From assembly GCA_041658325.1 (NCBI GenBank), contig JBBAAI010000001.1, forward strand, positions 93,427 to 152,868: a DNA stretch of 59,442 nt, given 5' to 3'. Of this stretch, positions 19,566 through 39,291 are shown piece by piece. Positions within the stretch are counted from its first letter, which is position 1. Every line of letters starts with the position of its first letter. Made by a program: the position numbers and the translations under genes. The notes under the pieces are model-generated. The model worked only from the letters and a program-made list of their open reading frames with translations. It did not search any database and was not told where the DNA came from. The stretch is from Minisyncoccota bacterium (GTDB lineage: Bacteria; Patescibacteriota; Minisyncoccia; Phycocordibacterales; UBA9973).

Positions 19566-20642
19566 ATGCCTCTTCCTCAAAAATCTTCTCAAAATAATTT
19601 CACCCCGGTTTTTTTAGAAGACGAGAAAGAAATACAAACGTTATTACTAAAAAACCCACATATTGTTTTAATAGATGCCTTTTCACATCAATTAAAAGAA
19701 CTTTTTGTTATTGAAAATCCAATTTATGCTGGTGAAAGAAAAATAGAAGGCTTTCAAACAGAAAAATTTAAAGAATTTTGTGACCAACATAAAAATAATT
19801 TTACTCATGTATATTATTCGTGGAATCATTCGATTGTAAAAACAGTAAAAAAAGAGGCGTATTTAAAATTAAAAACAAACCGCAATCAGGATTTGATTAC
19901 TGCCGCCGAACAAGAAAAATTATCGCAATGTCGTGTTGGTGTTTTTGGTATGAGCGTCGGAAGTAATATTGCTCTTGTATTAACACAGGCAGGCATTTCA
20001 AATGACATTATCATTGCTGATTTTGACGAACTTGATACAACTAATTTAAATAGAATTATTGCGGGAAGCCATCAAATAGGCTTAAATAAATGCATTATTT
20101 CTGCTAGACATATTTATGAAGATAATCCATTTGCTAACGTTACAGCATGGCAAGATGGTATTAATGAATCTAATCTAGAAGAAGCTCTTAAGTTAAAAAA
20201 AATTGATATTATTGTGGAAGAAGTTGATAACTTAGCAATAAAAATAAAGACTAGAGAACTTGCACAAAAATATAAAATACCCGTAGTGATGATTACAGAC
20301 AATGGAGATGGGGCAATGCTTCATATTGAACGTTATGATTTGGGATACAATAAAATCTTCAATAAATCATTTGAATATTGGAGGGAATTGTTCCAAACAA
20401 AACCAAGCATGGAAGATATCGGTAAAGTTATCATCGGTGATGTGTTGGGTGGTCCGCAAAATGTCTCTCCGAGGGTTTTTGCATCAGTTGAGCGCATAAT
20501 GAAACACGAGCTTGTTTCGTGGGCACAGCTTGGAAGTGCGGCTGTTTTGGGGGGTGTTGTTACAACAATCGCGATTAAAAATATTGTTTCTGGAAAAGAC
20601 ACTGCCCCCTATGTAGAGAAAAATATTCAGATTGAATTTTAG
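19566..20642 (+). CDS. ThiF/E1-like protein of the Rv1355c type
   Basis: RVGVFGMSVGSNIALVLTQAGISNDIIIADFDELDTTNLNRI. This is the degenerate G-x-S-V-G nucleotide loop plus the DxD..SNLNR-like motif that I recall for Rv1355c-family E1-like proteins. Confidence 0.65.
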   Translation: MPLPQKSSQNNFTPVFLEDEKEIQTLLLKNPHIVLIDAFSHQLKELFVIENPIYAGERKIEGFQTEKFKEFCDQHKNNFTHVYYSWNHSIVKTVKKEAYLKLKTNRNQDLITAAEQEKLSQCRVGVFGMSVGSNIALVLTQAGISNDIIIADFDELDTTNLNRIIAGSHQIGLNKCIISARHIYEDNPFANVTAWQDGINESNLEEALKLKKIDIIVEEVDNLAIKIKTRELAQKYKIPVVMITDNGDGAMLHIERYDLGYNKIFNKSFEYWRELFQTKPSMEDIGKVIIGDVLGGPQNVSPRVFASVERIMKHELVSWAQLGSAAVLGGVVTTIAIKNIVSGKDTAPYVEKNIQIEF

Positions 20643-20665
20643 TTTATTTTGAAATAAACATTACT

Positions 20666-22153
20666 ATGAAAAAACAAGACATTCTAAAAAAAATATCAAC
20701 AGCAAGTGAAGCATACTGGGAACAACTCCTAAAAAAAGAAAAACTTCTTGTTTTTAAAGAAACATATGAAAAAGTACCAGCGTATCGAAAATTTTTAAAA
20801 ACACAAAAATATGATAAAAAAGTAAAAAAAGAGACTGATTTTGCAAAATTGCCCATAATGACTAAGGCAAATTATTTAAGAAAATACCCACTCCATGAAT
20901 TAGTAATGGGCGGTTCACTCGCCAAACCACTAATACTTACTTCAACCTCAGGCTCAACTGGAACATCTTTTTATTTCCCTCGCACAGAATTAATTGACAA
21001 TGAATATTCTTATATTCTTGAACGATTTTTAGCAGAAGGTGGTCCGCAAAAAAATGAACCGACACTTATATTGATTTGTTTTGGTATGGGAGTTTGGATT
21101 GGTGGAGTTATTACTTATCAAGCGTTTGAAACGGCAAGTCGTCGCAGTAATCTTCCTGTATCTATTCTTACTCCCGGAATTAATAAAGCTGAAATCATTA
21201 AAGCACTTAAGTCTATTGCACCAAATTATACCAACATAATCCTAGTTGGATATCCCCCGTTTATAAAAGACATTGTCGACGAGGCGATAGCGGAAAAAAT
21301 TAATTTTTCAAAATATAATACCCGATTTATTTTCGCTGCTGAGGTTTTCACTGAAGGATTTCGTGATTATCTTTGTAAAAAAACTTATGTAAAAAACATG
21401 TATCGAGACACATTGGCAATCTATGGAAGCGCTGATATCGGGGCAATGGCTTGGGAAACTGGAATACTTATACTTTTAAAACGTCTCTTGCAAAAAAAAG
21501 AAGGCCGAATGGAAAAATTCTTTGGCACAAAACACGCAATGCCAACAATAGGGTATTTTAATCCGGCTTGGCTCCAGTTTGAGAGCGAGAATGGTGAAGT
21601 TCTAATCAGCGGAAGAAACGCTATTCCTTTTGTGCGCTATGGCATAGGAGATCATGGTGGCACTTTTACCTTTTCTGACATGAAAAAACGTCTCGCCATA
21701 CTTAATATTGATTTTGATTCTGAAATAAAAAAGACTGGCTTGAATGATGCTGTATTAAAATTGCCGTGTGTTTATGTATATGAGCGAAATGATCTCTCAA
21801 CCACTCTTTATGGACTTCAAATTTATCCCGAAATCATTCGTGAAGCACTCCTTCATGTTGCCCTCCACCCATATATCACAGGGAAATTCAGCATGATAAC
21901 TAAATTTGATAAAAAACAAGATCAATATTTAGAAATAGTAATAGAAACAAAAAAAGAAATAAAAAAAATACCAAATCAAAAAAAGAAACAAGCTCTCAAG
22001 AGCATCATTGAAAATCTACATAAAAAAAGTTCTGAATTTAGTGAGCTTGAAAAACATTTAGGCAAACGAGCACATCCTAAACTTGTTTTTGTAACACACG
22101 AGCATCAAGATTATTTTAAGCCTGGAATAAAACAAAAATGGGTGAGAAAATAA
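20666..22153 (+). CDS. Adenylate-forming enzyme, PaaK / coenzyme F390 synthetase-like
   Basis: TSTSGSTGTSFYFPR (AMP-binding P-loop-like motif), GYPPF, YGSADIG. Length and layout resemble phenylacetate-CoA ligase-like proteins. Confidence 0.65.
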   Translation: MKKQDILKKISTASEAYWEQLLKKEKLLVFKETYEKVPAYRKFLKTQKYDKKVKKETDFAKLPIMTKANYLRKYPLHELVMGGSLAKPLILTSTSGSTGTSFYFPRTELIDNEYSYILERFLAEGGPQKNEPTLILICFGMGVWIGGVITYQAFETASRRSNLPVSILTPGINKAEIIKALKSIAPNYTNIILVGYPPFIKDIVDEAIAEKINFSKYNTRFIFAAEVFTEGFRDYLCKKTYVKNMYRDTLAIYGSADIGAMAWETGILILLKRLLQKKEGRMEKFFGTKHAMPTIGYFNPAWLQFESENGEVLISGRNAIPFVRYGIGDHGGTFTFSDMKKRLAILNIDFDSEIKKTGLNDAVLKLPCVYVYERNDLSTTLYGLQIYPEIIREALLHVALHPYITGKFSMITKFDKKQDQYLEIVIETKKEIKKIPNQKKKQALKSIIENLHKKSSEFSELEKHLGKRAHPKLVFVTHEHQDYFKPGIKQKWVRK

Positions 22154-22195
22154 AGTACTCATGTTATAATGCCTATGTTATTTTAATTTCAACTT

Positions 22196-23236
22196 ATGAA
22201 AGAAAATTATAAAGCCTGGGCAATAGATTTTGACGAATTTTTTAAGAAAACTACCGATACTGAAAGAACACGTTTTTTTCTTTCTTTTGTTTTACTTGCC
22301 CCGTCAGGGCACAATAGTCAGCCTTGGAAATTTAAAATAAAAGATAATATCGCAGATATTTTTTTTGAAAAGGAAAGACTAGTTACTGCAAGTGACGAAG
22401 AAGGAAGACAAACGTTCGTTGCTCTTGGTTGTCTAATTACTAACTTTTCGGAAACAGTAAAGGCTTATGGATATACGCCCATAATCAAATATAACAAGGA
22501 CTTATCAATTACAAACACATCATCTTTGGTGCAGCTTTCTTTTATAAAAGAAAGCAAAAATATTCAGCCCAATCTTGTTGTTTTAAAATCGATGACAGAT
22601 AGACACACTGATAGAAATAAATATAATCAAAAAGAATTTCCTGATCAATTGTTAAAATATATTTCACAATTATCAGATGATTCTTTCCTCGTCTCGACAG
22701 TTTCTGACACAATTAAAAGGAAAATTCTTGCCTCGTATGCAGTTGACGCGCAAATAGATATTATGGAAAAATTTTCGTTTAGGAATGAATTATCTCATTT
22801 TATAAAAAACACCCTTTCCTCTTCAAAATACGGGATGACCGGCAATACGCTCTGCTTGCCTTTATTTGTTTCATTTTTTGCTTCAAAACTTATCTCTAAA
22901 ATAAATTTATCAAAAATAACTAAAAAGAAAGATTTTTCTTTGCTTTATAAATCTACTCCTTCCTTTTTGTTTATTTCTTCAAAAGAAGATACTCCTCTTG
23001 CTTGGATTAAATCTGGAGAATTACTCGAGAATATATGGCTAGAATCAACCAAGCATTTAATCAGCTGTCATCCTCTTGCCGCAATAATACAAAATAAATC
23101 TTTTAGACAAAAACTTTCGGAAGAATTGAAAACTGATTTTTATCCAAATATTTTTATCAGGATTGGTTATTCGAAAGCTAATTTTTTTAAAATACCATCG
23201 AGCCCGAGATTTTTAGTATCAGATTTGATAATATAA
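22196..23236 (+). CDS. Nitroreductase-superfamily protein, Acg-like (double-length)
   Basis: LLAPSGHNSQPWKFKI near the N-terminus. At 346 aa it is compatible with tandem nitroreductase-fold proteins. Confidence 0.6.
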   Translation: MKENYKAWAIDFDEFFKKTTDTERTRFFLSFVLLAPSGHNSQPWKFKIKDNIADIFFEKERLVTASDEEGRQTFVALGCLITNFSETVKAYGYTPIIKYNKDLSITNTSSLVQLSFIKESKNIQPNLVVLKSMTDRHTDRNKYNQKEFPDQLLKYISQLSDDSFLVSTVSDTIKRKILASYAVDAQIDIMEKFSFRNELSHFIKNTLSSSKYGMTGNTLCLPLFVSFFASKLISKINLSKITKKKDFSLLYKSTPSFLFISSKEDTPLAWIKSGELLENIWLESTKHLISCHPLAAIIQNKSFRQKLSEELKTDFYPNIFIRIGYSKANFFKIPSSPRFLVSDLII

Positions 23237-23240
23237 TTAT

Positions 23241-24839
23241 ATGGAAATAAACATAGAAGTTTTACTTATAGGGATTACAATTTTTTCAAATTTATTTTTA
23301 GGATTTTTAACATTACTGTCTTCAAGGCGAAACCCGACCAACATCTTTTTTTTCCTCCTAACTTTTGTTTTAAATATTTGGATTGTAATAAACTATCTTT
23401 CATATCAATATCTAAATCCCGATAAGGCGTTTCTTCTAGCAAAACTAGTGCTGTTTTTTGCCATTCTTATTGGATATTTTTTCTATTTATTTATTGATAC
23501 ATTTATAAAAAACAGGTTTAGCTTTCGATCAACTACTATTGCCCTAACGGCGCTAGCGATCATCAATCTTTTTTTAACACTAAATTCAAAGTTTTTTTCT
23601 GGTATGTTGATAATTAATGACTCTTTTAAACCCGTTGTTGAGCCGTGGATAATTTCATTTTCCATACTTCCTGTCGGCGTAATATTATATAGTATTTTAA
23701 AACTCGCAAGAAAAACAATACAATCGGAGTCTCTTGATAGAAATCGATTAATTGATGTTTTGGTTGGAAGTGGAATTATGTTTTTATTTATTATTTTATT
23801 TGACTTTGTGCTTCCATCTTTCTTTTCAAATACAATTTTTATTCCCATGGGAACTCTTTTTACTATTCCCTTCACTGCATTTACTGCTTTCGCCATTATT
23901 AAATATAAACTTTTTAACATTAAGGTCATTGCCACTGAATTAATCATTTTTTCACTTTGGATTTTTCTTTTAATACGAACTCTTACTTCATCATCGCCAG
24001 AAGATCAAATTATTGATGGTGGACTTTTAATAACTACAATTATTATAGGGGTTTTACTTATTAGAAGTGTTATGAAAGAAGTAAAACAACGAGAGAAGCT
24101 CGAGATCTTAACTGGAGAACTAGAAGATGCAAACGACAATTTAGAAAATCTAATCAAACAACGAGAGAGCTTGGTGCACCTCATTACCCACAAGGTGAAG
24201 GGTTCATTTACTCGCACCAAGGTTCTTTTTGCCAGTATGCTGGACGGCACTTTCGGAGAGATATCTCCAGAAATTAAAAAACGGGCAGCACAGGGGTTAG
24301 AATTTGATAATGGCGGTATTCAGACAGTTGATTTAGTTTTGAACGTTGCCAATATGCAAAACGGCCTCATCAAATATGATCTGAAAAATCTTGATTTTAA
24401 GGAATTAGTTGAACAATCAATTTCTGAAAAAAGAATTCCGGCAGAAGCAAAAGGATTGAAATTAGAAATAGAACTTGAGGATGGTGTTTATAATGTCCTC
24501 GGCGATTCTATTTGGCTCAAAGAAGCAGTAAATAATTTAATTGATAATTCTATACATTACACGAAGGAAGGAAAAATTGTTGTGGAACTTAAAAAGAAAG
24601 ATAATCATATTTTATTGTCCATCAAAGATACTGGCATAGGTATAACCGACGAAGATAAACAAAATTTATTTAAAGAAGGTGGCCGAGGTAAAGATTCTGT
24701 TAAAGTAAACGTAGATAGTACTGGCTACGGTCTCTTCACTGTGAAACTAATCGTAGAAGCGCACAAAGGCCGTGCCTGGGTAGAATCCGAAGGCGAAAAC
24801 AAAGGCTCACAATTCTTTGTAGAATTGCCTGTGATATAA
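23241..24839 (+). CDS. Sensor histidine kinase with a polytopic (about 7-TM) N-terminal domain
   Basis: Multiple TM helices, then a coiled coil. H-box LITHKVKGSF, N-box NLIDNSIHYT, G-boxes DTGIGI and GYGLFTVKLIVEAHKG. No response regulator is adjacent. Confidence 0.8.
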   Translation: MEINIEVLLIGITIFSNLFLGFLTLLSSRRNPTNIFFFLLTFVLNIWIVINYLSYQYLNPDKAFLLAKLVLFFAILIGYFFYLFIDTFIKNRFSFRSTTIALTALAIINLFLTLNSKFFSGMLIINDSFKPVVEPWIISFSILPVGVILYSILKLARKTIQSESLDRNRLIDVLVGSGIMFLFIILFDFVLPSFFSNTIFIPMGTLFTIPFTAFTAFAIIKYKLFNIKVIATELIIFSLWIFLLIRTLTSSSPEDQIIDGGLLITTIIIGVLLIRSVMKEVKQREKLEILTGELEDANDNLENLIKQRESLVHLITHKVKGSFTRTKVLFASMLDGTFGEISPEIKKRAAQGLEFDNGGIQTVDLVLNVANMQNGLIKYDLKNLDFKELVEQSISEKRIPAEAKGLKLEIELEDGVYNVLGDSIWLKEAVNNLIDNSIHYTKEGKIVVELKKKDNHILLSIKDTGIGITDEDKQNLFKEGGRGKDSVKVNVDSTGYGLFTVKLIVEAHKGRAWVESEGENKGSQFFVELPVI

Positions 24840-24943: not shown

Positions 24944-25528
24944 ATGAAAAATGAAATTGAAGCAACGTTTCTTTCAGTGAATAAAGATTCTGTGCGAACA
25001 AAGTTAAAAGAAGCTGGTTTTGAGTTAAAAACACCTGAATACATGATGAGGAGAAAAACGTTTGATTTTTCTCCTATCGCACCTGGACGCAGTAAATGGG
25101 GTCGCGTACGACAAGAATCGGACAAAATAACAATGACTGTTAAAGAAGTTCGTGGTTTAGGTATTAATGATACTTATGAAACTGAAATCGTAGTAAATGA
25201 TTTTGATGCAGCATCTGCTCTTTTTGAAGCTTGTGGTTTTCCCGCAAAAGCATTTCAAGAAAATATGCGCGAGGTGTGGACACGGGAAGAAGTTGAAGTA
25301 ACTATCGACACGTGGCCTAGCTTAAAACCGTTTGTTGAAATTGAGGGAGAAAATGAAGATATCGTAAAAAAAGTGTCTGAAGAACTCGGTTTTGATTTCG
25401 ATAAAGCAGTTTTTGGAAGTATCGATCTCGTATATGAAAAAGAACTTGGTGTTTCTGCAAAAACAATTATTAATTTGCCAGAAATAACATTTACAAATCC
25501 ACCAAAAAAAAACGTCACGGAAGCTTGA
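24944..25528 (+). CDS. CYTH-domain protein (triphosphate tunnel metalloenzyme family), divergent
   Basis: N-terminal EIEATF (ExExT rather than ExExK). Alternating beta-strand pattern and length are typical of CYTH/CyaB-like proteins. Confidence 0.55.
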   Translation: MKNEIEATFLSVNKDSVRTKLKEAGFELKTPEYMMRRKTFDFSPIAPGRSKWGRVRQESDKITMTVKEVRGLGINDTYETEIVVNDFDAASALFEACGFPAKAFQENMREVWTREEVEVTIDTWPSLKPFVEIEGENEDIVKKVSEELGFDFDKAVFGSIDLVYEKELGVSAKTIINLPEITFTNPPKKNVTEA

Positions 25529-25547
25529 AAGCTATCAACGTGACGTT
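25511..25547. terminator. Hairpin aacgtcacg...cgtgacgtt between the convergent CYTH gene and the radical-SAM gene
   Basis: 9-bp perfect stem with a 19-nt loop. It spans the TGA of the CYTH gene and ends 3 nt before the stop of the radical-SAM gene. Confidence 0.45.
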
Positions 25548-25550
25548 AGA

Positions 25551-26561
25551 TTACTTCATGATAAGAAGTGTTGGACGAATCTTCGGGTAAAGATACTCAC
25601 CCGGTTCTTCCATACACCATCCCTCTGTCGCACCGGGCACCCTGCAGTTGAAATTGCAGTACGGTGTCACAGTAAGACGCAGCGGGGTTTTAGCGAGAAG
25701 CTTCTCAATATTAGCTTCTCCAATTACTTCTTTGAGCTTCTGTTTCAGCTCCTTCGGCCGACCGAAGTACTCCGAGACATGGAACCCAATGTCTCTGCGC
25801 ATGTAGCAGAAATACAAATGAAGCCGCGGATCAACTCGCACATAGTCACCGAACGCCTCTTTGCAAACATGCTTGAAAGAACACGAAGCGCAAGGCTGGT
25901 TACCACGGTAGAGCTTATCACCAAGCTTCACCTCGACCGATCCGCCTCCCAGGAGGTGAAACTTTAGACGGCCACGACCGAGATTCTTCCGCACGCGCTC
26001 AATCTTGAGTGTGTGCGGAAGTACTGCATCACGTACAGGCTGGTGCCAGTCCTGATAATATGCCGTGCGTGTGGCAACACTTTTGGGCGTCCACAATAGT
26101 GTAAACAATTTGAGCCGACTATTGTAGCGCTCGATGAATGCCAACTGTTCAGGCAAATCATCTGTAAATCCCCGCATGAGTACGCGGTTGAAAGCCACCT
26201 TAATGCCTAACTCCAATGCAAGTGTTACACCACGAAGGAAACGATCGTAATCTCCAAAACCACCAGAGATCTCGCGGAACATAAGTGGGTTTGTTGAGTG
26301 CCAACTGGTTCGAATGAGAGAGAGACCAGCACGATCTAGATTCCCAGCGAAGATGTCTAGCAATTGTCCGTTCGTGGTCATAGAAACCTTGAAGTCACGA
26401 ATGGTCAGTGCACTAACGACGTCATGAATGCGGTAAGGTCCATCGTTCCAAAGAAGTGGTTCAAGCGCACCAATTTCTGCCTCTAGCGCACCACCCATGT
26501 CACGCCAGACATCAGCCATGGCAATGATATGCGCATAAGAGAGTGGTTTGAGGTTGTTCAT
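25551..26561 (-). CDS. MoaA-like radical-SAM-fold protein, apparently circularly permuted (cluster motif at the C-terminus)
   Basis: The N-terminus aligns to MoaA after its Cys motif (GALEPLLW ~ GGEPLLR, SMTTNGQLL ~ TTNG, AGLSLIRTS, GIKVAFNRVLMRG). An auxiliary-cluster-like PCASC...RVDPRLHLYFC is present. The last 45 aa read PLRLTVTPYCNFNCRVPGATEGWCMEEPGEY, compared with MoaA [18 protein letters not shown]. Confidence 0.65.
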   Translation of the reverse strand: MNNLKPLSYAHIIAMADVWRDMGGALEAEIGALEPLLWNDGPYRIHDVVSALTIRDFKVSMTTNGQLLDIFAGNLDRAGLSLIRTSWHSTNPLMFREISGGFGDYDRFLRGVTLALELGIKVAFNRVLMRGFTDDLPEQLAFIERYNSRLKLFTLLWTPKSVATRTAYYQDWHQPVRDAVLPHTLKIERVRKNLGRGRLKFHLLGGGSVEVKLGDKLYRGNQPCASCSFKHVCKEAFGDYVRVDPRLHLYFCYMRRDIGFHVSEYFGRPKELKQKLKEVIGEANIEKLLAKTPLRLTVTPYCNFNCRVPGATEGWCMEEPGEYLYPKIRPTLLIMK

Positions 26562-27124
26562 ACCCCCCCCTTTCCTTCTACAATGTTTCTGACGGTGGCA
26601 ACAACCTCTTCAACAGTAACATCACTCGTGTCGACGGAGATAAGACCAAGAGTCCGAAAAACTTCGTTGACCTGATCGAGAAACGCACCATTGCGCTCCA
26701 AGGTTGCGTCACTTGTGATCGTTGCACGTTTTGCCATGCGATCCTTGCGCACATCCGAACGTGCTTCGAGTAAGAACGCGAAGTGCGGAATCAGTAGCGT
26801 CGACTCTTCGTGAATCTCGCGGATGCGCGGGTCCATTGCGAAGTGGTAAGCCGCCGTGGATGCGATATACCGATCGCATATCACCGAAGTGGTCTGTAAT
26901 AGTTGGGATATCTGTGCTGAGTCATGTTGCGAGGCTAATCGGTAGAAGCAGTAGCGTTCGAGCGGTGTAGCGTGTAGGTCAACTTCACTTCGTAACTGCG
27001 CGAACATGCCAGAGGGCGACTTGTGATAGTGATATCCGCAGTCGGTGGCAAATAATTTTGCCACCGTTGTCTTTCCCACGCCATCGACCCCATCGATACT
27101 AATAAAAACGTGTTTTGATTTCAT
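26558..27124 (-). CDS. Thymidylate-kinase-family nucleotide kinase
   Basis: P-loop FISIDGVDGVGKTT and DRYIASTAAYH (the DRY..S..AY motif of dTMP kinase-like enzymes). The start was placed at ATG 27124, preceded by AAGGAGG. The stop overlaps the radical-SAM ATG (ATGA). Confidence 0.7.
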   Translation of the reverse strand: MKSKHVFISIDGVDGVGKTTVAKLFATDCGYHYHKSPSGMFAQLRSEVDLHATPLERYCFYRLASQHDSAQISQLLQTTSVICDRYIASTAAYHFAMDPRIREIHEESTLLIPHFAFLLEARSDVRKDRMAKRATITSDATLERNGAFLDQVNEVFRTLGLISVDTSDVTVEEVVATVRNIVEGKGGV

Positions 27125-27135
27125 TTCAACCTCCT

Positions 27136-27618
27136 TCAAGTTACCGAAACGACATTAAACCTTTTTGTTGTCTCTTGGATTTTGACTTCCACTTCGTCGC
27201 CTGCAACAGTGCCGATAAACGCACGGGCCATAGGCGCACCAATGCTAAGAGTGCTGATTTTTTCTCCATCCACTTCGTAGGTATCTCCACCACCTACTGG
27301 TAGCAAGAAATACTTTGACCTTACTCCATCATCAAGGTTTTCAACCTCGACGATGGCACAACTAGAACCCTTGGTGGTGGTTGGCAGATGATCCATGAAG
27401 CGCTTAAGTGCACCCAATGCTTGCCGGGTTTCAAAAAGTGATTGTTCTATCGCTTCAGCACGTCGGCTCATCTGCCATTTTGTTGTGTCGCTGTGCGATT
27501 GCATAGCCCCAGGAGCTTCTATCGCCGCCTGCTTGGTTGTTTCAAGACTCTGTTTAGTGCTTTTTTCCCTTTGCGTGAGCATTTCAACAACAAGCTGTAA
27601 GAGCTTTTGTTTGTTCAT
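27136..27618 (-). CDS. GreA/GreB/Rnk-like protein (coiled-coil N-terminus plus Gre-factor C-terminal domain)
   Basis: The C-terminal STLSIGAPMARAFIGTVAGDEVEVK matches the S..AP.G.AL.G...GD signature of Gre/Rnk C-domains. The N-terminal ~80 aa are helical but lack the canonical acidic DxxEN tip. AGGAGG lies 5 nt upstream of the ATG. Confidence 0.6.
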   Translation of the reverse strand: MNKQKLLQLVVEMLTQREKSTKQSLETTKQAAIEAPGAMQSHSDTTKWQMSRRAEAIEQSLFETRQALGALKRFMDHLPTTTKGSSCAIVEVENLDDGVRSKYFLLPVGGGDTYEVDGEKISTLSIGAPMARAFIGTVAGDEVEVKIQETTKRFNVVSVT

Positions 27619-27663
27619 TTTTTCCTCCTATTCAATTGTGAAAGGGCCTGTTTTCCGCTATTT

Positions 27664-27692
27664 ATTTTAAATTACTTTAATCGTTTTGTCAA
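27664..27692 (-). promoter_or_regulatory. Canonical sigma70-type promoter for the GC-rich operon: TTGACA, 17-nt spacer, TAAAAT
   Basis: Minus strand reads TTGACA (27692-27687), aaacgattaaagtaatt, TAAAAT (27669-27664). A ~45-nt leader containing AGGAGG follows. Confidence 0.55.
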
Positions 27693-27737
27693 TTCTCCGT
27701 TATTTTTAACGTAAGCGATTTTTGTTTATAAAGATAG

Positions 27738-27749: not shown

Positions 27750-28340
27750 ATGAAACTAGAAACAAAAAGGTTAATTCTGAGAAAACCAAAAAGGAGTGAC
27801 TGGAAGGATGTTGTTGAAGGAATTGGAGATTTTGATGTATGTAAAAATATGGTAAGTGTTCCTTATCCATATCACAGAAAAGACGCTGAAAATTTTATAA
27901 AATTTCAAATAAAACAACCCGAAGAAAAGAAACCAAAAAATTATAATTTTTTTCTTGAGTTAAAATCTGAGAAAAAAGTAATTGGCTGTCTTAGTGTCGT
28001 AAAAATAGATTATTTTTCGGGGGTTGGAGAAACAGGCTCTTGGGTAAATAAAAAATATTGGAGAAAGGGGTATATGACAGAAGCAAAAATTACTGTGAAT
28101 GATTTTGCATTTAATAAATTAAACTTGAGAAGATTATATTCTCCAGTTTTTACTGATAACGCAGCATCAAATGCCACCCAACAAAAGATGGGATATAAAC
28201 TAGAAGGAAAAATGCGAAAATGCGTAAGAAGTAAAGCAACAGAAAAAATCCACGATGAAAACATCTATGGTTTGTTAAAAGAGGATTGGAAAAAAATCAG
28301 ACCCAAGCTTCTAATAAAAAATAAAAAAATATTTATATGA
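27750..28340 (+). CDS. GNAT-family N-acetyltransferase (RimJ/RimL-like)
   Basis: LETKRLILRKPKRSDWKDVVEG is the N-terminal pattern of RimJ/L-type acetyltransferases. WVNKKYWRKGYMTEA is the acetyl-CoA motif region. Confidence 0.75.
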   Translation: MKLETKRLILRKPKRSDWKDVVEGIGDFDVCKNMVSVPYPYHRKDAENFIKFQIKQPEEKKPKNYNFFLELKSEKKVIGCLSVVKIDYFSGVGETGSWVNKKYWRKGYMTEAKITVNDFAFNKLNLRRLYSPVFTDNAASNATQQKMGYKLEGKMRKCVRSKATEKIHDENIYGLLKEDWKKIRPKLLIKNKKIFI

Positions 28341-28879
28341 AATACGAAGTAGAAGTTAAGGCTAGGGTGAAAAATTTTGATGAAATAATTCCTAAACTAA
28401 AAGAGCTAGGTTGTGTTTTGTCAGAACCAATAATGCAGGATGATTATATATTCAACCAAAAAGGAATTGATCTTTATAAGGGTCACGGTGATTTGTCAGT
28501 TTTAAGAATTAGAGAACAAGATAAAAAAATAATTTTTACCCTGAAAAAGAATCGCAGTAACGAACTTGATTGCATAGAAAAGGAAATTGAAGTGAATGAC
28601 AAAAACACCCTAAAAGAAATTATTGAGTTGCTTGGTTTTGAAAGTAATGTTGAGGTTCACAAAAAGAGGATTAAAACTAATTACAAAGATTATGAAATTT
28701 GCTTGGACGAAGTTGATGGATTGGGTACATATATAGAAGTTGAAAAAATGTCTGACGAAGATGGAGAAAAAGTACAAGAAGAATTATTCGGTTTTTTGCA
28801 AACACTAGGAATTCTCAAAGAAGATAAAGTATTTAACGGCTACGATACTCTGATTTGGCTAAAAAATAACCAAAAATAA
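28337..28879 (+). CDS. CYTH-domain protein (class IV adenylyl cyclase / triphosphatase-like)
   Basis: Canonical N-terminal EVEVKARV (ExExK). 180 aa. ATGA overlap with the GNAT gene. Confidence 0.7.
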   Translation: MKYEVEVKARVKNFDEIIPKLKELGCVLSEPIMQDDYIFNQKGIDLYKGHGDLSVLRIREQDKKIIFTLKKNRSNELDCIEKEIEVNDKNTLKEIIELLGFESNVEVHKKRIKTNYKDYEICLDEVDGLGTYIEVEKMSDEDGEKVQEELFGFLQTLGILKEDKVFNGYDTLIWLKNNQK

Positions 28880-29757: not shown

Positions 29758-31872
29758 TTATGATTTTGGTTTGAAAAAATCTTTATCAGCTTCCTTGATA
29801 GATAAACTAATCTTACCTTTTTCATTATCTATCTTTATAACCTTTACGGGCACGATAGTACCTTCCTTTATTATATCTGATACTTTGTCCACACGGAATG
29901 GTGCCATTTCAGATATATGCACCATGCCATCCGTGAAGGGATTCAAGGCAACAAAAACTCCAAAATCAGCAAGCTTTACCACCTCTCCTTTCAATATTTC
30001 TCCAACTTTAAATTCGTGAGTCATCTCTTCGACTATTTCTTTAGCTTTTTCGGCTGCTCCATCCTTTCCAGTCAAATATACTGTCCCGTCATCTTCGATG
30101 GTTATTTCCGCGCCAGATCTCTCTTTGATATCTTTAATGGTTTTTCCGCCACCACCGATAACCATACCGATTTTCTCTGGATTGATTTTTATAATCAAAA
30201 TCTTCGGTGCGTTAGAAGATATACTTTCTCGTGGTTTGGAAATTTCTTTTTCGATTGCATCTAAAATATGAAAGTGCGCTTTTCTAGATTGCTTCATCGC
30301 TTCAGCTAATATTTTTATCGGAACACCATCCACTTTCACATCGAGTTGTATAGCGGTAACACCATTTTTCGTCCCCGCAACCTTGAAATCCATATCACCG
30401 TGGTGGTCTTCAGGTCCTTGAATGTCAGTTAAAATTTTATATTTATTTTCATTTTCAAACATTAAACCCATAGCAATACCGGCAACGGGAGCTTTGATCG
30501 GCACTCCACCATCCATCAATGCTAAGGTTGAAGCACAGATAGAAGCTTGAGAAGTTGAACCGTTGGATGCCATAGATTCAGAAACGATACGAATAGTATA
30601 AGGAAATTCTTCGGTGGTTGGTAATACCATTGCAATAGCTTTTTCAGCGAGTGCTCCATGTCCTATTTCTCGACGATTTGTAAAACCAGAACGTCCAGTC
30701 TCTCCCGCAGAAAAAGGAGGAAAATTATAGTGGTGCATAAATCTTCTTTCAGAGGTCACATCCATTCCATTCACCGCTTGTTTGTCTCCTGGTCCGCCTA
30801 AAGTCAAAGCAGAAAGAACGTGCGTTCCTCCACGATAAAAAATTCCAGAACCATGTAATATTTTTGATAACCCTCCAGCTTGCGCGTAAAGATCGCGGAC
30901 TTCATCCATTGCTCGTCCATCTGCCCTTTTATTTTCTTCAATTGCTTTTTTGTGCAACATTTCATTTTCTGTATTATCAAACAAATCGTCTTCCAGCTCG
31001 TAATCTTTGTTGTCTGGAAATTTTTCCATAACCAAATTATTCCAAATGGTATGCAAAGCATCTATGTGTTTCTTCCCAGCTCCGGCAAAAATAGCTTCTT
31101 CCATTTTCGGTAAAATATTTTCTCTAAATAAAGTTTCTGCTTCAGGATTTATAATTTCTTTAGGAATAATTCTTTTTTCTTTACCAATTTCTTTAGCAAT
31201 ATTTTTTTGGAATTCTTCCAATTTAGAAATTTCAACACTCGCACTCCTTAGAGCTTCTTCTATCTCTTCTTCTTTTACTTGCCTGGCCGCAGCTTCAATC
31301 ATGTTGATATGTCCCTCTCTTCCGCACACAGTCAAATCAAACTTATATGGATATTCTTCTCCTCTGAAAACCGTAGATGGATTTATTTTTAAGGTCTCAT
31401 CGTCATATTTTCCAATACGCACACAGCCGACTGGTCCCCTCCATGGAATATTAGAAACAACGAGAGCAAGAGAAGCCGCATTGACGGCAAGCATGGCTGG
31501 ATCATTATCATCACAAGCGATAACCGTCACGATAACTTGCACTGCATGTCGTAAATGATTATCAAAAAGCGGGCGAATGGTTCGATCAATAACTCGACTC
31601 GCCAAAATCGCTTCGGTAGATGGTTTACCTTCTCTTCTAATATATTGAGAACCTAAAATTTTTCCAGCAGCATAAAACTTTTCTGCATAATCAACCGTCA
31701 AATTAAAAAAACCCAAACCTTCTTGTTTGTCATGAGACATGCAGGCAGTGGCGAGCACAATGGTCTCACCATATTTAAGCATTACACTACCGTGTGCTTG
31801 ATCTGCTAAATCAGTAAAAATGGCGGTTAATTTTTTACCTCCGATTTCCACACTATATTCTTTCTTTTCCAT
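29758..31872 (-). CDS. pnp: Polyribonucleotide nucleotidyltransferase (PNPase)
   Basis: Two RNase PH domains, a KH domain (IGMVIGGGGKTIKDI) and an S1 domain (GEILKGEVVKLADFGVFVAL). Confidence 0.95.
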   Translation of the reverse strand: MEKKEYSVEIGGKKLTAIFTDLADQAHGSVMLKYGETIVLATACMSHDKQEGLGFFNLTVDYAEKFYAAGKILGSQYIRREGKPSTEAILASRVIDRTIRPLFDNHLRHAVQVIVTVIACDDNDPAMLAVNAASLALVVSNIPWRGPVGCVRIGKYDDETLKINPSTVFRGEEYPYKFDLTVCGREGHINMIEAAARQVKEEEIEEALRSASVEISKLEEFQKNIAKEIGKEKRIIPKEIINPEAETLFRENILPKMEEAIFAGAGKKHIDALHTIWNNLVMEKFPDNKDYELEDDLFDNTENEMLHKKAIEENKRADGRAMDEVRDLYAQAGGLSKILHGSGIFYRGGTHVLSALTLGGPGDKQAVNGMDVTSERRFMHHYNFPPFSAGETGRSGFTNRREIGHGALAEKAIAMVLPTTEEFPYTIRIVSESMASNGSTSQASICASTLALMDGGVPIKAPVAGIAMGLMFENENKYKILTDIQGPEDHHGDMDFKVAGTKNGVTAIQLDVKVDGVPIKILAEAMKQSRKAHFHILDAIEKEISKPRESISSNAPKILIIKINPEKIGMVIGGGGKTIKDIKERSGAEITIEDDGTVYLTGKDGAAEKAKEIVEEMTHEFKVGEILKGEVVKLADFGVFVALNPFTDGMVHISEMAPFRVDKVSDIIKEGTIVPVKVIKIDNEKGKISLSIKEADKDFFKPKS

Positions 31873-32038: not shown

Positions 32039-32548
32039 TTATTTTGTACTCATCAAATATTTTCTGGGATTTTCAGATAAATCCACAAAATCATCTACCA
32101 CTTCACGAAGTTTACCAGAAGTTGATTTACCAAATGAAACAACTTCCACCTGCACTCCAATAGTTTGTAAATATTCCACCAATGGTACAAAATCTCCATC
32201 GCCAGAAATTATCACTACTGAATCCAGTCGGGGCGACATTTTGATAGCATCTACAGCGAGACCAACATCCCAGTCTGCTTTTTTTGCACCGCCAGCAAAT
32301 ATTTGTAAATCTTTTGTTTTGGTTTCAATCCCCAATTTACTCAAAGCTTCAAAAAAATTCTTTTCGTCTCCCGCTTCGGTGGTAATAACGTACGCGACTG
32401 CACGCACAAGCTTTCGCCCCGCTACGGCATCTTTCAATACCGCACCGAAATTCACTCGCGCTTGATATAAATTGCGAGCTGAATGATATAAATTTTGAGT
32501 ATCAATAAAAACTCCAACTCTTTGTTCTTTATGTTTTATGACTGTCAT
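32039..32548 (-). CDS. NYN-domain (LabA/DUF88-like) protein, putative RNase
   Basis: RVGVFIDTQNLYHSARN...VVIISGDGDFVPLVEYLQ is typical of the LabA-like NYN domain. Confidence 0.75.
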   Translation of the reverse strand: MTVIKHKEQRVGVFIDTQNLYHSARNLYQARVNFGAVLKDAVAGRKLVRAVAYVITTEAGDEKNFFEALSKLGIETKTKDLQIFAGGAKKADWDVGLAVDAIKMSPRLDSVVIISGDGDFVPLVEYLQTIGVQVEVVSFGKSTSGKLREVVDDFVDLSENPRKYLMSTK

Positions 32549-33505: not shown

Positions 33506-34411
33506 GTGATCACAGAAATAGATAAACTCAAAAGAGAATTTTTAGAATATTTAGAAATTGAAAAAGGCTCGGCCTTAAGGACGGTGGAAAATTATGAGCA
33601 TTATCTCACCCGCTTTTTTGAATTTGGAAAAATAAAAAATGCAAAAGATATTACAGATTCTTCGGTGCGAGAATTTCGTCTCTGGCTCAATCGACAAATA
33701 ACGGGCAACAACAGAAAAACCGGAGAAACAGTTTCTAAAAAAACTCAAAATTATTACATGATTGCTTTGCGAGTTTTTTTGAAATATCTGACAAAAAGAG
33801 GAATCAAATGTATTTCTGCGGAACAAATAGAATTGGCGAAGGTCGGAGAAAGATCACTCGACCTAATTACTCACCTAGAATTGAAAAGATTATTAGATTC
33901 TCCAAAAGAAAATACTTTGAAAGATTTGAGAGATAAGGCGATTTTGGAACTTTTGTTTTCTACCGGGCTCCGTGTTTCAGAATTATGTTCACTCACTTCA
34001 GATATTGATTTACGCTCGGATGAATTGTCTATCCGTGGAAAAGGAGGAAAAATCCGCGTAGTTTTTATCTCGGACGAAGCAAAAAAATATGTCAGAAATT
34101 ATTTATCTGCACGTAAAGATATGGGCGATGCGCTTTTCGTGCAGGTTGGTGACAAAAACACTCCCCCGCTCACTCGCCGATCCATAGAAAGAATTGTAAA
34201 ACAGCACGCCATAAAAGCAGGCATTTCCAAAAAAGTTACTCCGCACGTAATGCGCCACATGTTTGCGACAGACCTACTCGGCAATGGCGCTGACCTTCGC
34301 TCTGTCCAAATAATGCTCGGGCATGCCAACATCGGCACCACACAGATCTATACTCACGTCACCGATAAAGCCCTTAGGGAAACCCATAAAAAATTTCATT
34401 CTACAAAATAA
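33506..34411 (+). CDS. Tyrosine recombinase, XerC/XerD family
   Basis: R..H..R..Y catalytic pattern: GLRVSEL, HVMRHMFATDLL, LGHANIGTTQIYTHV. GTG start with a TAAAAT 6 nt upstream. Confidence 0.85.
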   Translation: MITEIDKLKREFLEYLEIEKGSALRTVENYEHYLTRFFEFGKIKNAKDITDSSVREFRLWLNRQITGNNRKTGETVSKKTQNYYMIALRVFLKYLTKRGIKCISAEQIELAKVGERSLDLITHLELKRLLDSPKENTLKDLRDKAILELLFSTGLRVSELCSLTSDIDLRSDELSIRGKGGKIRVVFISDEAKKYVRNYLSARKDMGDALFVQVGDKNTPPLTRRSIERIVKQHAIKAGISKKVTPHVMRHMFATDLLGNGADLRSVQIMLGHANIGTTQIYTHVTDKALRETHKKFHSTK

Positions 34412-38127: not shown

Positions 38128-38136
38128 TTTGTTTTG

Positions 38137-38208
38137 TGCACTCGGGGGGATTCGAACCCTCAATAATAGTTCCGAAGACTATTGTGATATCCATTTCACT
38201 ACGAGTGC
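38137..38208 (-). tRNA. tRNA-Arg (anticodon TCG)
   Basis: Hand-folded cloverleaf: acceptor GCACTCG/CGAGTGC, D stem GTGA/TCAC, anticodon stem ATAGT/ACTAT with loop CTTCGGA, T loop TTCGAAT. There is one A-C mismatch in the T stem and no encoded CCA. Confidence 0.75.
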
Positions 38209-38360
38209 AAAATTATTTATTAATACTGATATTTTACACTATTATTAAAATATAGGCAAATAATCCTTATTTTATAAGCCAATTTTACAATTGCATTAAT
38301 ATAAATTAAATATTATAATTAAGAAACATTTTTGTTTGATTATAATACATAAAGAACGTT

Positions 38361-38431
38361 GCGGTTATGGTTTAGTGGTAGAACACGTCCTTGCCAAGGA
38401 TGAGACGGGAGTTCGATTCTCCCTAGCCGCA
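38361..38431 (+). tRNA. tRNA-Gly (anticodon GCC)
   Basis: Acceptor GCGGTTA/TAGCCGC, anticodon loop TTGCCAA, T arm GGGAG-TTCGATT-CTCCC. Confidence 0.85.
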
Positions 38432-38681
38432 CATATTTAATAATTTATTCATGTCCCTTATCAAAAGCTTTGTACTACAAGGATTTAATGAAAAATGTGG
38501 ATAACTATGTGAGTAATGTTTATAAGGGACAAGATAAAAACTGTCTTTTAAAACACGTTTTCTTTAAAATATGTTGAAAAATAAGGATATTTTGATAAAA
38601 GACATAAAAAATTAGTAATTTGTTTCACGTGAAACGTGTTACACATGAAACTAGGAAATATGTTATAAAATAAGCTTATTT

Positions 38682-39092
38682 ATGCCAAAAGTATTTACTT
38701 CAGAAGCCCAGAAAATAGGAAAAATTGGGGAAAATGTAGCAGAAAAGTTTCTCGTGAAACATAGTTTTTCCATATTAGACAGAAATTACACTAAAAAATG
38801 GGGCGAAATAGATATAATTGCAGAAAAAGCTGATAAATTATTCTTTATTGAAGTAAAATCCGTTTCTAAACCAAGCCTAAATATCATTACCCGTGAAACA
38901 TTGGATCAATACCACCCAGAGGATAATATGCATCCGTGGAAATTGAAAAGAATGTCGCGCACAATACAAACTTATCTTTTATCCAAAAAAATACCAGATA
39001 AAAAAGAGTGGCAGGTGGATTTATTGGTTGTGTTTCTTGATATAAAAAACAAAAAAGCTAAAATAAAATTAGTCAAAGATATAATTTTGTGA
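38682..39092 (+). CDS. yraN: YraN-family (UPF0102) endonuclease-like protein
   Basis: GKIGENVAEKFLVKHSFSILDRNYTKKWGEIDIIAEK...LFFIEVKS. Confidence 0.8.
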   Translation: MPKVFTSEAQKIGKIGENVAEKFLVKHSFSILDRNYTKKWGEIDIIAEKADKLFFIEVKSVSKPSLNIITRETLDQYHPEDNMHPWKLKRMSRTIQTYLLSKKIPDKKEWQVDLLVVFLDIKNKKAKIKLVKDIIL

Positions 39093-39124
39093 TATTATTG
39101 CTCATAGTTTTTTACAAATTTTAA

Positions 39125-39195
39125 CGGGCCGTAGTATACCGGTAGTACAAGTGCTTTGGGAGCATTTAGACTGGGTTCAATTCCCAGCGGCCCGA
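39125..39195 (+). tRNA. tRNA-Pro (anticodon TGG)
   Basis: Acceptor CGGGCCG/CGGCCCG, anticodon stem AGTGC/GCATT with loop TTTGGGA, T arm CTGGG-TTCAATT-CCCAG. Confidence 0.8.
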
Positions 39196-39219
39196 CCCCA
39201 GGGGAGTAAAATAAGCATT

Positions 39220-39290
39220 GCGGGATTAGTTTAATGGTAAAACGTCAGTTTTCCAAACTGAGGTTGGGAGTTCGATTCTCCCATCCCGCA
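39220..39290 (+). tRNA. tRNA-Gly (anticodon TCC)
   Basis: Acceptor GCGGGAT/ATCCCGC, anticodon stem TCAGT/ACTGA with loop TTTCCAA, T arm GGGAG-TTCGATT-CTCCC. Confidence 0.85.
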
Positions 39291-39291
39291 C

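Follow-up and report, generated by a model that had tools for sequence, protein, structure and literature searches.

A predicted circularly permuted radical-SAM protein encoded with a nucleotide kinase and a Gre-like factor in Patescibacteria

We analysed a 59,442-nucleotide stretch of the Minisyncoccota bacterium assembly GCA_041658325.1 (contig JBBAAI010000001.1, positions 93,427 to 152,868 of the forward strand), hereafter the window. It encodes a radical S-adenosylmethionine (SAM) protein that, judged from its sequence, is almost certainly circularly permuted relative to MoaA and the canonical members of the superfamily. Among enzyme superfamilies radical SAM is one of the largest. Its members are recognised, annotated and explained in mechanistic terms through a Cys motif that follows the first strand, on a loop close to the N-terminus. 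In the protein described here, the corresponding strand and loop appear to lie at the C-terminus. The gene closes an operon of three minus-strand genes, of which the other two encode a Gre-like factor and a nucleotide kinase. As a whole, the explanation that we favour, and hold to be likely, is a permuted radical-SAM enzyme that is fed by the kinase and directed at RNA polymerase.

Results

The cluster motif is found at the C-terminus

The protein has Cys residues at positions 224, 227, 233, 252, 302, 306 and 316 only. As no Cys precedes residue 224, the N-terminal two thirds are Cys-free and there is no N-terminal Cys motif. The C-terminal stretch, LRLTVTPYCNFNCRVPGATEGWC, carries C302, C306 and C316 in a CX3CX9C arrangement, which is 7 residues longer than the canonical CX3CX2C, and the aromatic residue W315 stands directly before the third Cys. 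An initial annotation, made from the letters of the sequence, had noticed the C-terminal CX3CX9C and the absence of an N-terminal motif. Both are confirmed by the positions of the Cys residues (224-316) and by the translation of residues 291-321, TPLRLTVTPYCNFNCRVPGATEGWCMEEPGE.

The native protein scored 48.8 bits against the Pfam Radical_SAM profile (PF04055; cut-off 29.5; E 1.1e-12), residues 7-139 matching profile positions 28-161 of 166. Profile positions 1-27 were unmatched, so the part with strand beta-1 and the Cys motif has no N-terminal partner. The barrel core shows the SAM-binding GxxEP motif (G31-A-L-E34-P35), TTNG (62-65), SWH (86-88) and FNRVL (124-128). Behind it, the protein keeps an auxiliary-cluster-like region, as had been annotated: C224, C227 and C252 of its CX2CX5CX18C motif align with the Cys residues of the MoaA CX2CX13C in an hhalign comparison with the canonical MoaA-like protein P0250, and C233 is an inserted, invariant extra.

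Profile searches and relatives argue for a circular permutation

Duplicating the query, we find that Radical_SAM profile positions 2-161 align over residues 297-475, that is, across the C-to-N junction, and the proposed permutation is thereby supported. We also placed the last ~50 residues in front of the rest. This re-permuted query raised the Radical_SAM score to 52.1 bits, and an archaeal MoaA model was covered from position 11, as against position 40 for the native order. The re-permuted family alignment matched P0250 over 274 columns (target 14-292, score 120), compared with 247 columns for the native one (target 40-292, score 105). In phmmer, the re-permuted query was collinear with Staphylococcus aureus MoaA (1tv7) from residue 16, 'lrltvtpycnfncrvpgategwcm' aligning on 'LRLSVTDRCNFRCD-------YCM' of 1tv7. 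The C-terminal segment thus matches the N-terminal segment of MoaA with a 7-residue insertion before the third Cys, just as first described.

Relatives were collected by a profile search of 1.84 billion representative proteins, and we classified the full-length ones (at least 285 residues) among the 148 further representative matches listed. The motif was C-terminal and expanded (CX3CX8-10C) in 23 of them, C-terminal and canonical (CX3CX2C) in 5, N-terminal and expanded in 12, and N-terminal and canonical in 58; the other listed matches were 41 fragments and 9 proteins without a terminal motif. Permuted order and expanded loop are therefore combined differently among the wider relatives. The N-terminal expanded class is exemplified by P0162 (VIRLIVTTDCNFNCKFPDKDLMFCH), and these non-permuted relatives have an N-terminal LRLxVxxxCNFxCxFPxxxxxWCH. 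Our family profile matches them in two domains whose order is swapped, profile ~281-320 lying on target ~14-64 (best independent E ~1e-6 to 1e-7) and profile ~4-270 on target ~47-335. This is how a circular permutation normally shows itself. The break in the chain order lies in the loop that leads from the third Cys to helix alpha-1, and residues 264-291 join the old termini; this linker is variable within the family and missing in the non-permuted relatives. In a neighbour-joining tree built on the core that all of them share, the four motif and topology classes are separate; the deep order of this tree is unreliable. Since the C-terminal segment is residue-for-residue homologous to the canonical N-terminal strand and loop, we regard the arrangement as a true circular permutation. 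The duplicated and re-permuted queries and the swapped-order relatives together support the earlier proposal that beta-1 and the SAM-cluster loop have moved to the C-terminus.

Conservation and integrity of the gene

The topology recurs in many homologues: 155 were found among 5.8 billion proteins, nearly all of 330-340 residues, and more are present among the 1.84 billion representatives. They come from many independent assemblies, mostly of Patescibacteria, the named ones being Parcubacteria, Kerfeldbacteria and Portnoybacteria. Among 24 homologues of 47-88% identity, there is no variation at R295, C302, N303, P309, G310, W315 or C316 and almost none at C306. Across the same set, C224, C233 and C252 of the auxiliary region are invariant and C227 is nearly so; the GxxEP residues (G31, E34, P35), TTNG and the FN residues are also invariant.

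The radical-SAM gene starts within the end of the kinase gene upstream, start and stop codon sharing ATGA. Nearly all related loci show such an overlap of the kinase and radical-SAM genes (ATGA or GTGA), preceded by a Shine-Dalgarno-like AAGGAGG, and by this arrangement the radical-SAM gene is predicted to be translationally coupled to the kinase gene. In the window, a run of eight G on the minus strand (26562-26569) lies directly 5' of the start codon, still within the 3' end of the kinase gene. It is probably a variant of the Shine-Dalgarno sequence, because the relatives have AAGGAGG there. Such a homopolymer could be prone to slippage. A role as a phase-variation tract was rejected, as the homopolymer is not conserved and relatives carry AAGGAGG.

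Predicted structure

AlphaFold2 (AF2), run with a 24-sequence alignment, gave a model of the radical-SAM protein with a predicted local distance difference test score (pLDDT) of 89.9 and a predicted template modelling score (pTM) of 0.89. In the C-terminal part of the model, two helices (269-280 and 285-291) precede a strand (294-296), with block pLDDT values of 87-94 for residues 281-300 and 84 for residues 301-310. Searching the PDB with Foldseek, we find MoaA first (1tv7 and 2fb2; E ~1e-11, template modelling score 0.60), followed by AbmM, BlsE, NifB, HydE and PqqE, with viperin further down. The best 50 listed PDB matches (E down to 3.5e-4) are all radical-SAM enzymes. In the sequence alignment to MoaA, the invariant G31-x-x-E34-P35 falls on the GGEP motif.

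Table 1. Features of the radical-SAM operon and its immediate surroundings in the window
Feature	Coordinates	Strand	Basis
Radical-SAM gene, predicted circularly permuted, MoaA/twitch-like, 336 residues	25551..26561	minus	ORF; Pfam Radical_SAM; AF2/Foldseek
Barrel core from helix alpha-1 on, residues 7-139	26145..26543	minus	Pfam alignment, invariant columns, alignment to MoaA residues 50-176
Auxiliary-cluster (twitch-like) region PCASCSFKHVCKEAFGDYVRVDPRLHLYFCY, residues 223-253	25803..25895	minus	Translation, hhalign to MoaA-like P0250, conservation
Two-helix linker from ancestral C-terminus to ancestral N-terminus, residues 264-291	25689..25772	minus	AF2 helices 269-280, 285-291
Relocated strand beta-1 (LRLTV) and SAM-cluster loop CNFNC-RVPGATEGW-C, residues 291-321	25596..25688	minus	Translation, invariance, alignment to MoaA N-terminus, swapped-order profile matches
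dTMP-kinase-family nucleotide kinase, 193 residues	26558..27139	minus	Pfam Thymidylate_kin 9.3e-15; PDB thymidylate kinase 5x7j
Gre/Gfh1-like RNA-polymerase secondary-channel factor, 160 residues	27136..27618	minus	Pfam GreA_GreB C-terminal domain 1.7e-7
Sigma-70-like promoter before the operon, TTGACA-17-TAAAAT, 11/12	27664..27692	minus	Consensus scan; pattern match only
CYTH (triphosphate tunnel metalloenzyme) protein, convergent with the radical-SAM gene	24944..25528	plus	Pfam CYTH 2.1e-5; PDB 1yem, 7ns8
Hairpin between the convergent CYTH and radical-SAM genes	25511..25547	.	RNAfold -16.2 kcal/mol

The operon partners are a nucleotide kinase and a Gre-like factor

The kinase matched the PADLOC models PDC-M51B (2.5e-25) and VakA (4.8e-17). 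PDC systems are presented in a preprint (bioRxiv 10.1101/2024.01.29.577857) as candidates from a guilt-by-embedding screen. In the same PADLOC comparison the radical-SAM protein had no match to the PDC-M51 A protein.

The Gre-like protein scored 31.5 against PF01272 (cut-off 26.9), and its family profile matched GreA (1grj, 3.5e-6) and full-length Gfh1 (1.2e-3). The AF2 model (pLDDT 89.3) shows an antiparallel coiled coil (helices 3-34 and 42-75) and a beta domain. Its best Foldseek matches in the PDB were GreA, Gfh1 and GreB (E ~1e-7), the HelD N-terminal domain and Rnk, all of which bind in the secondary channel of RNA polymerase. A coiled coil with a C-terminal globular domain is shared with the Gre family at large (GreA, GreB, Gfh1, Rnk, DksA). 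Unlike GreA, the protein lacks the acidic pair at the tip, and it is a paralogue situated inside a nucleotide-enzyme operon. The tip of the coiled coil is conserved, with G37, S41, D44, T45 and K47 invariant in the family. The family consensus is GAMESRYDTFKEEAQ (GAMxSRYDTFKEE) and the window has GAMQSHSDTTKW; GAMESRYDT in the family thus corresponds to GAMQSHSDT here. Of the acidic residues only D44 is invariant, in another register, and the tip is closer to that of Gfh1. In some Patescibacteria loci a separate, housekeeping-type GreA is encoded just beyond the CYTH gene (L004, 7720-8184; L017, 7698-8201). The modules of L004 and L005 are without a Gre-like gene of their own.

Comparison with MoaA, viperin and other radical-SAM enzymes

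MoaA is both the best fold match and the best profile match of the radical-SAM protein. The two share the partial barrel, TTNG, FN(R/x)V and the C-terminal auxiliary-cluster Cys residues. Scores against the MoaA models TIGR02666, TIGR02668 and NF001199 were 54.1, 74.8 and 58.8 bits (cut-offs 284, 325 and 231), and the best MoaA-model score after re-permutation, 76.6 bits, is still below the cut-off. The prokaryotic viperin model NF038283 gave 11.9 bits (cut-off 180). As the scores are far below both kinds of cut-off, the protein is neither MoaA nor viperin. R17, R266 and R268 of MoaA are the arginines of the 2fb2 triple mutant, which concerns GTP (guanosine triphosphate) binding according to the title of that entry. 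The equivalents of R17 and R268 are R295 and R242, both invariant; the position of R266 varies between K and E, beside an 11-residue insert that carries the invariant C233. Apart from this insert with its extra Cys, the protein differs from MoaA in its C-terminal beta-1 and SAM loop, in having CX3CX9C instead of CX3CX2C, and in having the kinase and the Gre-like factor as partners instead of MoaC. No MoaC or other molybdenum cofactor gene was found among the annotated neighbours of the loci examined. The low MoaA scores and the absence of a nearby MoaC support the earlier suspicion that the substrate is not that of MoaA.

The pairing with a thymidylate-kinase-family kinase, here one that matches PADLOC VakA, is a likeness to viperin and prokaryotic viperins (pVips), as is the sporadic, horizontally transferred distribution. 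Relatives of the radical-SAM protein match pVip models weakly to moderately. In contrast to viperin, which to our knowledge has no auxiliary cluster region, the protein has such a region and a permuted topology. The dedicated Gre-like partner also sets it apart from pVips, for which we found no such partner in the literature. AbmM (8wm2) and BlsE (7vob), the next-best folds after MoaA, are twitch-domain enzymes that tailor nucleosides or nucleotides. They differ in having the canonical topology, in belonging to antibiotic biosynthetic clusters and in having no operon with a kinase and a Gre-like factor. These predicted fold matches are consistent with a nucleoside or nucleotide substrate.

Non-canonical SAM-cluster motifs occur in HmdB (CX5CX2C) and QueE (CX14CX2C). 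ThiC is the nearest precedent for a C-terminal cluster site, that is, for a SAM cluster held away from an N-terminal CX3CX2C loop. It binds the cluster through its C-terminal domain (PMC4389238). The arrangement is different, however: the ThiC cluster domain is a separate, non-homologous CX2CX4C module and not a relocated beta-1 and loop. NCBIfam and Pfam hold no dedicated model for the permuted family, whose members are named in databases MoaA, 'cyclic pyranopterin phosphate synthase' (JGI, Joint Genome Institute) or plain 'radical SAM'.

The three-gene module in other genomes

We compared related loci, 28 from 185,579 species genomes and 5 from metagenome assemblies. The 28 are mostly from Patescibacteria, and the others from Acidobacteria, Verrucomicrobia and Gemmatimonadota. 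The kinase gene is directly upstream of the radical-SAM gene in every complete locus, the Gre-like gene is found in nearly all loci, and the trio is conserved across four phyla. A distant member, P0148 (radical-SAM-profile E ~1e-57), keeps the kinase and the Gre-like factor and stands beside a CAP12-type TIR protein. The CYTH neighbour is confined to the Patescibacteria loci (25 loci, E 1e-31 to 1e-105), and ten loci have a gene for a HisKA_7TM kinase nearby. In the window, the convergent CYTH gene has a host-like GC content of 36%, and the hairpin between it and the radical-SAM gene is possibly a bidirectional terminator.

The cassette (25551-27700) has a GC content of 47-50%, compared with 36% for the rest of the window, and in other genomes it is off the host value in either direction. 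Next to an Acidobacteria copy there is a gene for a MobL-type relaxase, and in L024 a MobL relaxase, a SRAP protein and an ATP-dependent DNA ligase are encoded beside the relative. The GC departure in both directions and the relaxase neighbour therefore indicate that the trio is horizontally mobile, and the pattern suggests that the cassette has been replaced horizontally more than once, at a locus that is itself conserved.

As in L024, genes of defence or mobile-element type adjoin relatives in three loci. There is a weak match to a Card1-like nuclease near one (L033), a HEPN_RiboL-PSP and an EVE gene beside another (L034) and a CAP12-PCTIR TIR domain beside a third (L037). The non-permuted relatives with the expanded loop adjoin HEPN and EVE genes, or a PfkB kinase. 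One permuted relative with a canonical CX3CX2C (P0163, L035, 1762-7566) is accompanied by inositol-phosphatase-like, AIR-synthase-like, DegT aminotransferase and NTP (nucleoside triphosphate)-transferase genes, which look like a sugar-nucleotide tailoring cluster. The clade with the canonical C-terminal motif has this different context, and the permuted topology is therefore not tied to one function.

Elsewhere in the window, the plus strand at 19566-24839 encodes a ThiF-like E1 protein, an unknown protein of 495 residues, a nitroreductase-like protein of 346 residues and a HisKA_7TM histidine kinase; the same run, in the same order, stands upstream of the module in L004 and L005. Its ThiF and nitroreductase-like pair recalls azole-forming peptide-modification clusters. 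Beyond the operon, a GNAT acetyltransferase gene (27750-28340, plus) overlaps by 4 nucleotides a second CYTH gene (28337-28879; Pfam 1.4e-20), which scores better than the first, so that two CYTH paralogues flank the cassette. Polynucleotide phosphorylase (29758-31872, minus), a NYN-domain protein (32039-32548, minus), a tyrosine recombinase of the XerC/D type (33506-34411, plus) and four clustered tRNA genes (38136-39291; Arg-TCG, Gly-GCC, Pro-TGG and Gly-TCC) are ordinary housekeeping neighbours. Searching Rfam, we found only these four tRNAs in the window and no riboswitch at the operon.

Discussion

The chain of the radical-SAM protein would run from helix alpha-1 through the barrel, the MoaA-type auxiliary region and a helical linker of ~28 residues to beta-1 and the SAM loop. 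The C-terminal segment would fold back beside beta-2, so placing C302, C306 and C316 to hold the SAM-binding [4Fe-4S] cluster at the usual place, and C224, C227 and C252, with or without C233, would hold a second cluster. Ordinary reductive cleavage of SAM and abstraction of a hydrogen atom may follow. We consider the protein probably an active radical-SAM enzyme with a C-terminal SAM cluster.

The substrate would be a nucleotide phosphorylated by the co-translated dTMP (deoxythymidine monophosphate)-kinase-family enzyme. Viperin with CMPK2, and pVips with their kinases, are pairs of a radical-SAM enzyme and a nucleotide kinase. Because of this analogy to the coupled kinase, and because the nearest structural relatives act on nucleotides or nucleosides, we think a nucleotide substrate rather more plausible than another kind. 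The product may then act on RNA polymerase together with the Gre/Gfh1-like factor. This target is suggested since the sole other constant partner is a secondary-channel factor, and we propose it with some hesitation, slightly short of an even chance. The product could be an antiviral nucleotide of the chain-terminator type, the Gre-like factor sparing the host polymerase, or the nucleotide and the factor could form a pair in the manner of ppGpp (guanosine tetraphosphate) and DksA. It is a tentative suggestion, which we put at about one chance in three, that the kinase, the permuted enzyme and the Gre-like factor constitute a previously undescribed RNA-polymerase-directed nucleotide system whose radical-SAM member is the first natural permutant of the core. 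In such a system the Gre-like factor might shield or rescue the host polymerase, deliver the nucleotide or bind it jointly.

Several observations weigh against the explanation that we favour. The docking of residues 292-316 at the beta-1 and cluster position is a strong inference from homology and model confidence, and around the third Cys (residues 311-320) pLDDT is down to 68. We know of no characterised precedent for a nine-residue spacing between the second and third Cys. On the functional side, we infer the role of the system from gene neighbourhood. The GreA acidic pattern, D41/E44, is out of register in the Gre-like tip, and the PADLOC pVip model matches the radical-SAM protein weakly (E 1.2e-3, residues 34-156). 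A scan of viral contigs gave no relatives, and no classical defence genes flank the module in the window. In Patescibacteria, moreover, the module sits in a conserved chromosomal neighbourhood with the histidine kinase and CYTH genes, which could equally mean a housekeeping or regulatory role.

Other explanations of the C-terminal motif have to be weighed against permutation. An artefact, in which a frameshift, misassembly, wrong start or decaying fragment hides an N-terminal motif, might be suspected from the eight-G run 5' of the start codon and from the GC difference between the cassette and its flanks. We consider its chance negligible. All six frames between 24900 and 27800 are free of CX3CX2C, the gene upstream codes for an intact kinase and runs into the start codon, and more than 150 independent assemblies agree in length, start and C-terminal motif. 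Neither an upstream canonical motif nor a frameshift, the findings that could have overturned the initial annotation, was thus encountered. As about 155 homologues share the layout, a frameshift or assembly error is excluded, and the artefact is refuted. The C-terminal strand and Cys loop could also complete the barrel of a partner subunit in trans, as in a domain-swapped dimer. This would suit the long helical linker (264-291) before the segment and the lower confidence around C316, and ThiC, which has a C-terminal cluster-binding domain (PMC4389238), is comparable in that this domain serves the neighbouring active site. We find it improbable, as the AF2 monomer forms a compact model (pTM 0.89) in which the strand at 294-296 is predicted with confidence, and the new termini fall in the loop that links the cluster motif to helix alpha-1, two elements adjacent in MoaA-like folds. 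If instead the Cys segment were an independent metal-binding tail, holding zinc or an extra iron-sulphur cluster, on a nucleotide-binding or scaffold protein that has lost radical-SAM chemistry, the unusual X9 spacing would be accounted for. The segment is, however, homologous to beta-1 and its loop (LRLxV, CNFxC, the aromatic residue before the third Cys), the SAM-motif residues (GxxEP, TTNG, FN) are invariant, and there are relatives in which this expanded loop stands at its normal N-terminal position. This makes such a tail quite improbable.

As to function, a rearranged MoaA, the GTP 3',8-cyclase of molybdenum cofactor synthesis, is very improbable. The names given by JGI, the best fold and profile match and the invariant R17 and R268 equivalents point to it, but the scores are 54-75 bits against cut-offs of 231-325, the R266 equivalent is unconserved beside the 11-residue insert with its extra Cys, and the loci examined show no MoaC or other molybdenum cofactor genes, having the kinase and the Gre-like factor as constant partners. 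More serious, though still unlikely, is a regulatory module in which a signalling nucleotide and the Gre-like cofactor act on RNA polymerase, as ppGpp and DksA do, under the control of the histidine kinase and CYTH proteins. The invariant Gre-like tip, which differs from the cleavage-type tip of GreA, agrees with this, as do the conserved CYTH and frequent HisKA_7TM neighbours in Patescibacteria and the viral contig scan, in which no phage-encoded relatives appeared. Yet outside Patescibacteria the trio occurs without CYTH or histidine kinase, the cassette is horizontally mobile and sometimes lies beside a relaxase, a TIR domain or a nuclease-like gene, and the kinase resembles the defence-candidate kinases PDC-M51B and VakA.

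Our literature searches turned up neither a circularly permuted radical-SAM core nor a CX3CX9C-type motif. The term 'circularly permuted' led to lipoate ligases, the RAGNYA fold and phage genomes only, and nothing relevant was found that pairs radical SAM with thymidylate kinase in Patescibacteria. A natural family with the strand and loop at the C-terminus and a CX3CX9C motif would mean that the catalytic core tolerates re-threading. With this family, nature would also offer a way to test how chain connectivity matters for the cluster loop, SAM binding and barrel closure. The permuted order explains why members are mis-annotated as truncated or MoaA-like. Since the same loop is found in non-permuted relatives, and the canonical loop in permuted ones, the evolutionary path is directly testable.

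The accessory biology of Patescibacteria is poorly known. The partnership with a kinase and a Gre/Gfh1-like factor suggests an unexplored chemistry aimed at the secondary channel of RNA polymerase. If true, this would either widen the viperin paradigm or bring in a new nucleotide that regulates the polymerase. The family thus bears on radical-SAM enzymology and, via its operon, may bear on RNA-polymerase-directed nucleotide systems.

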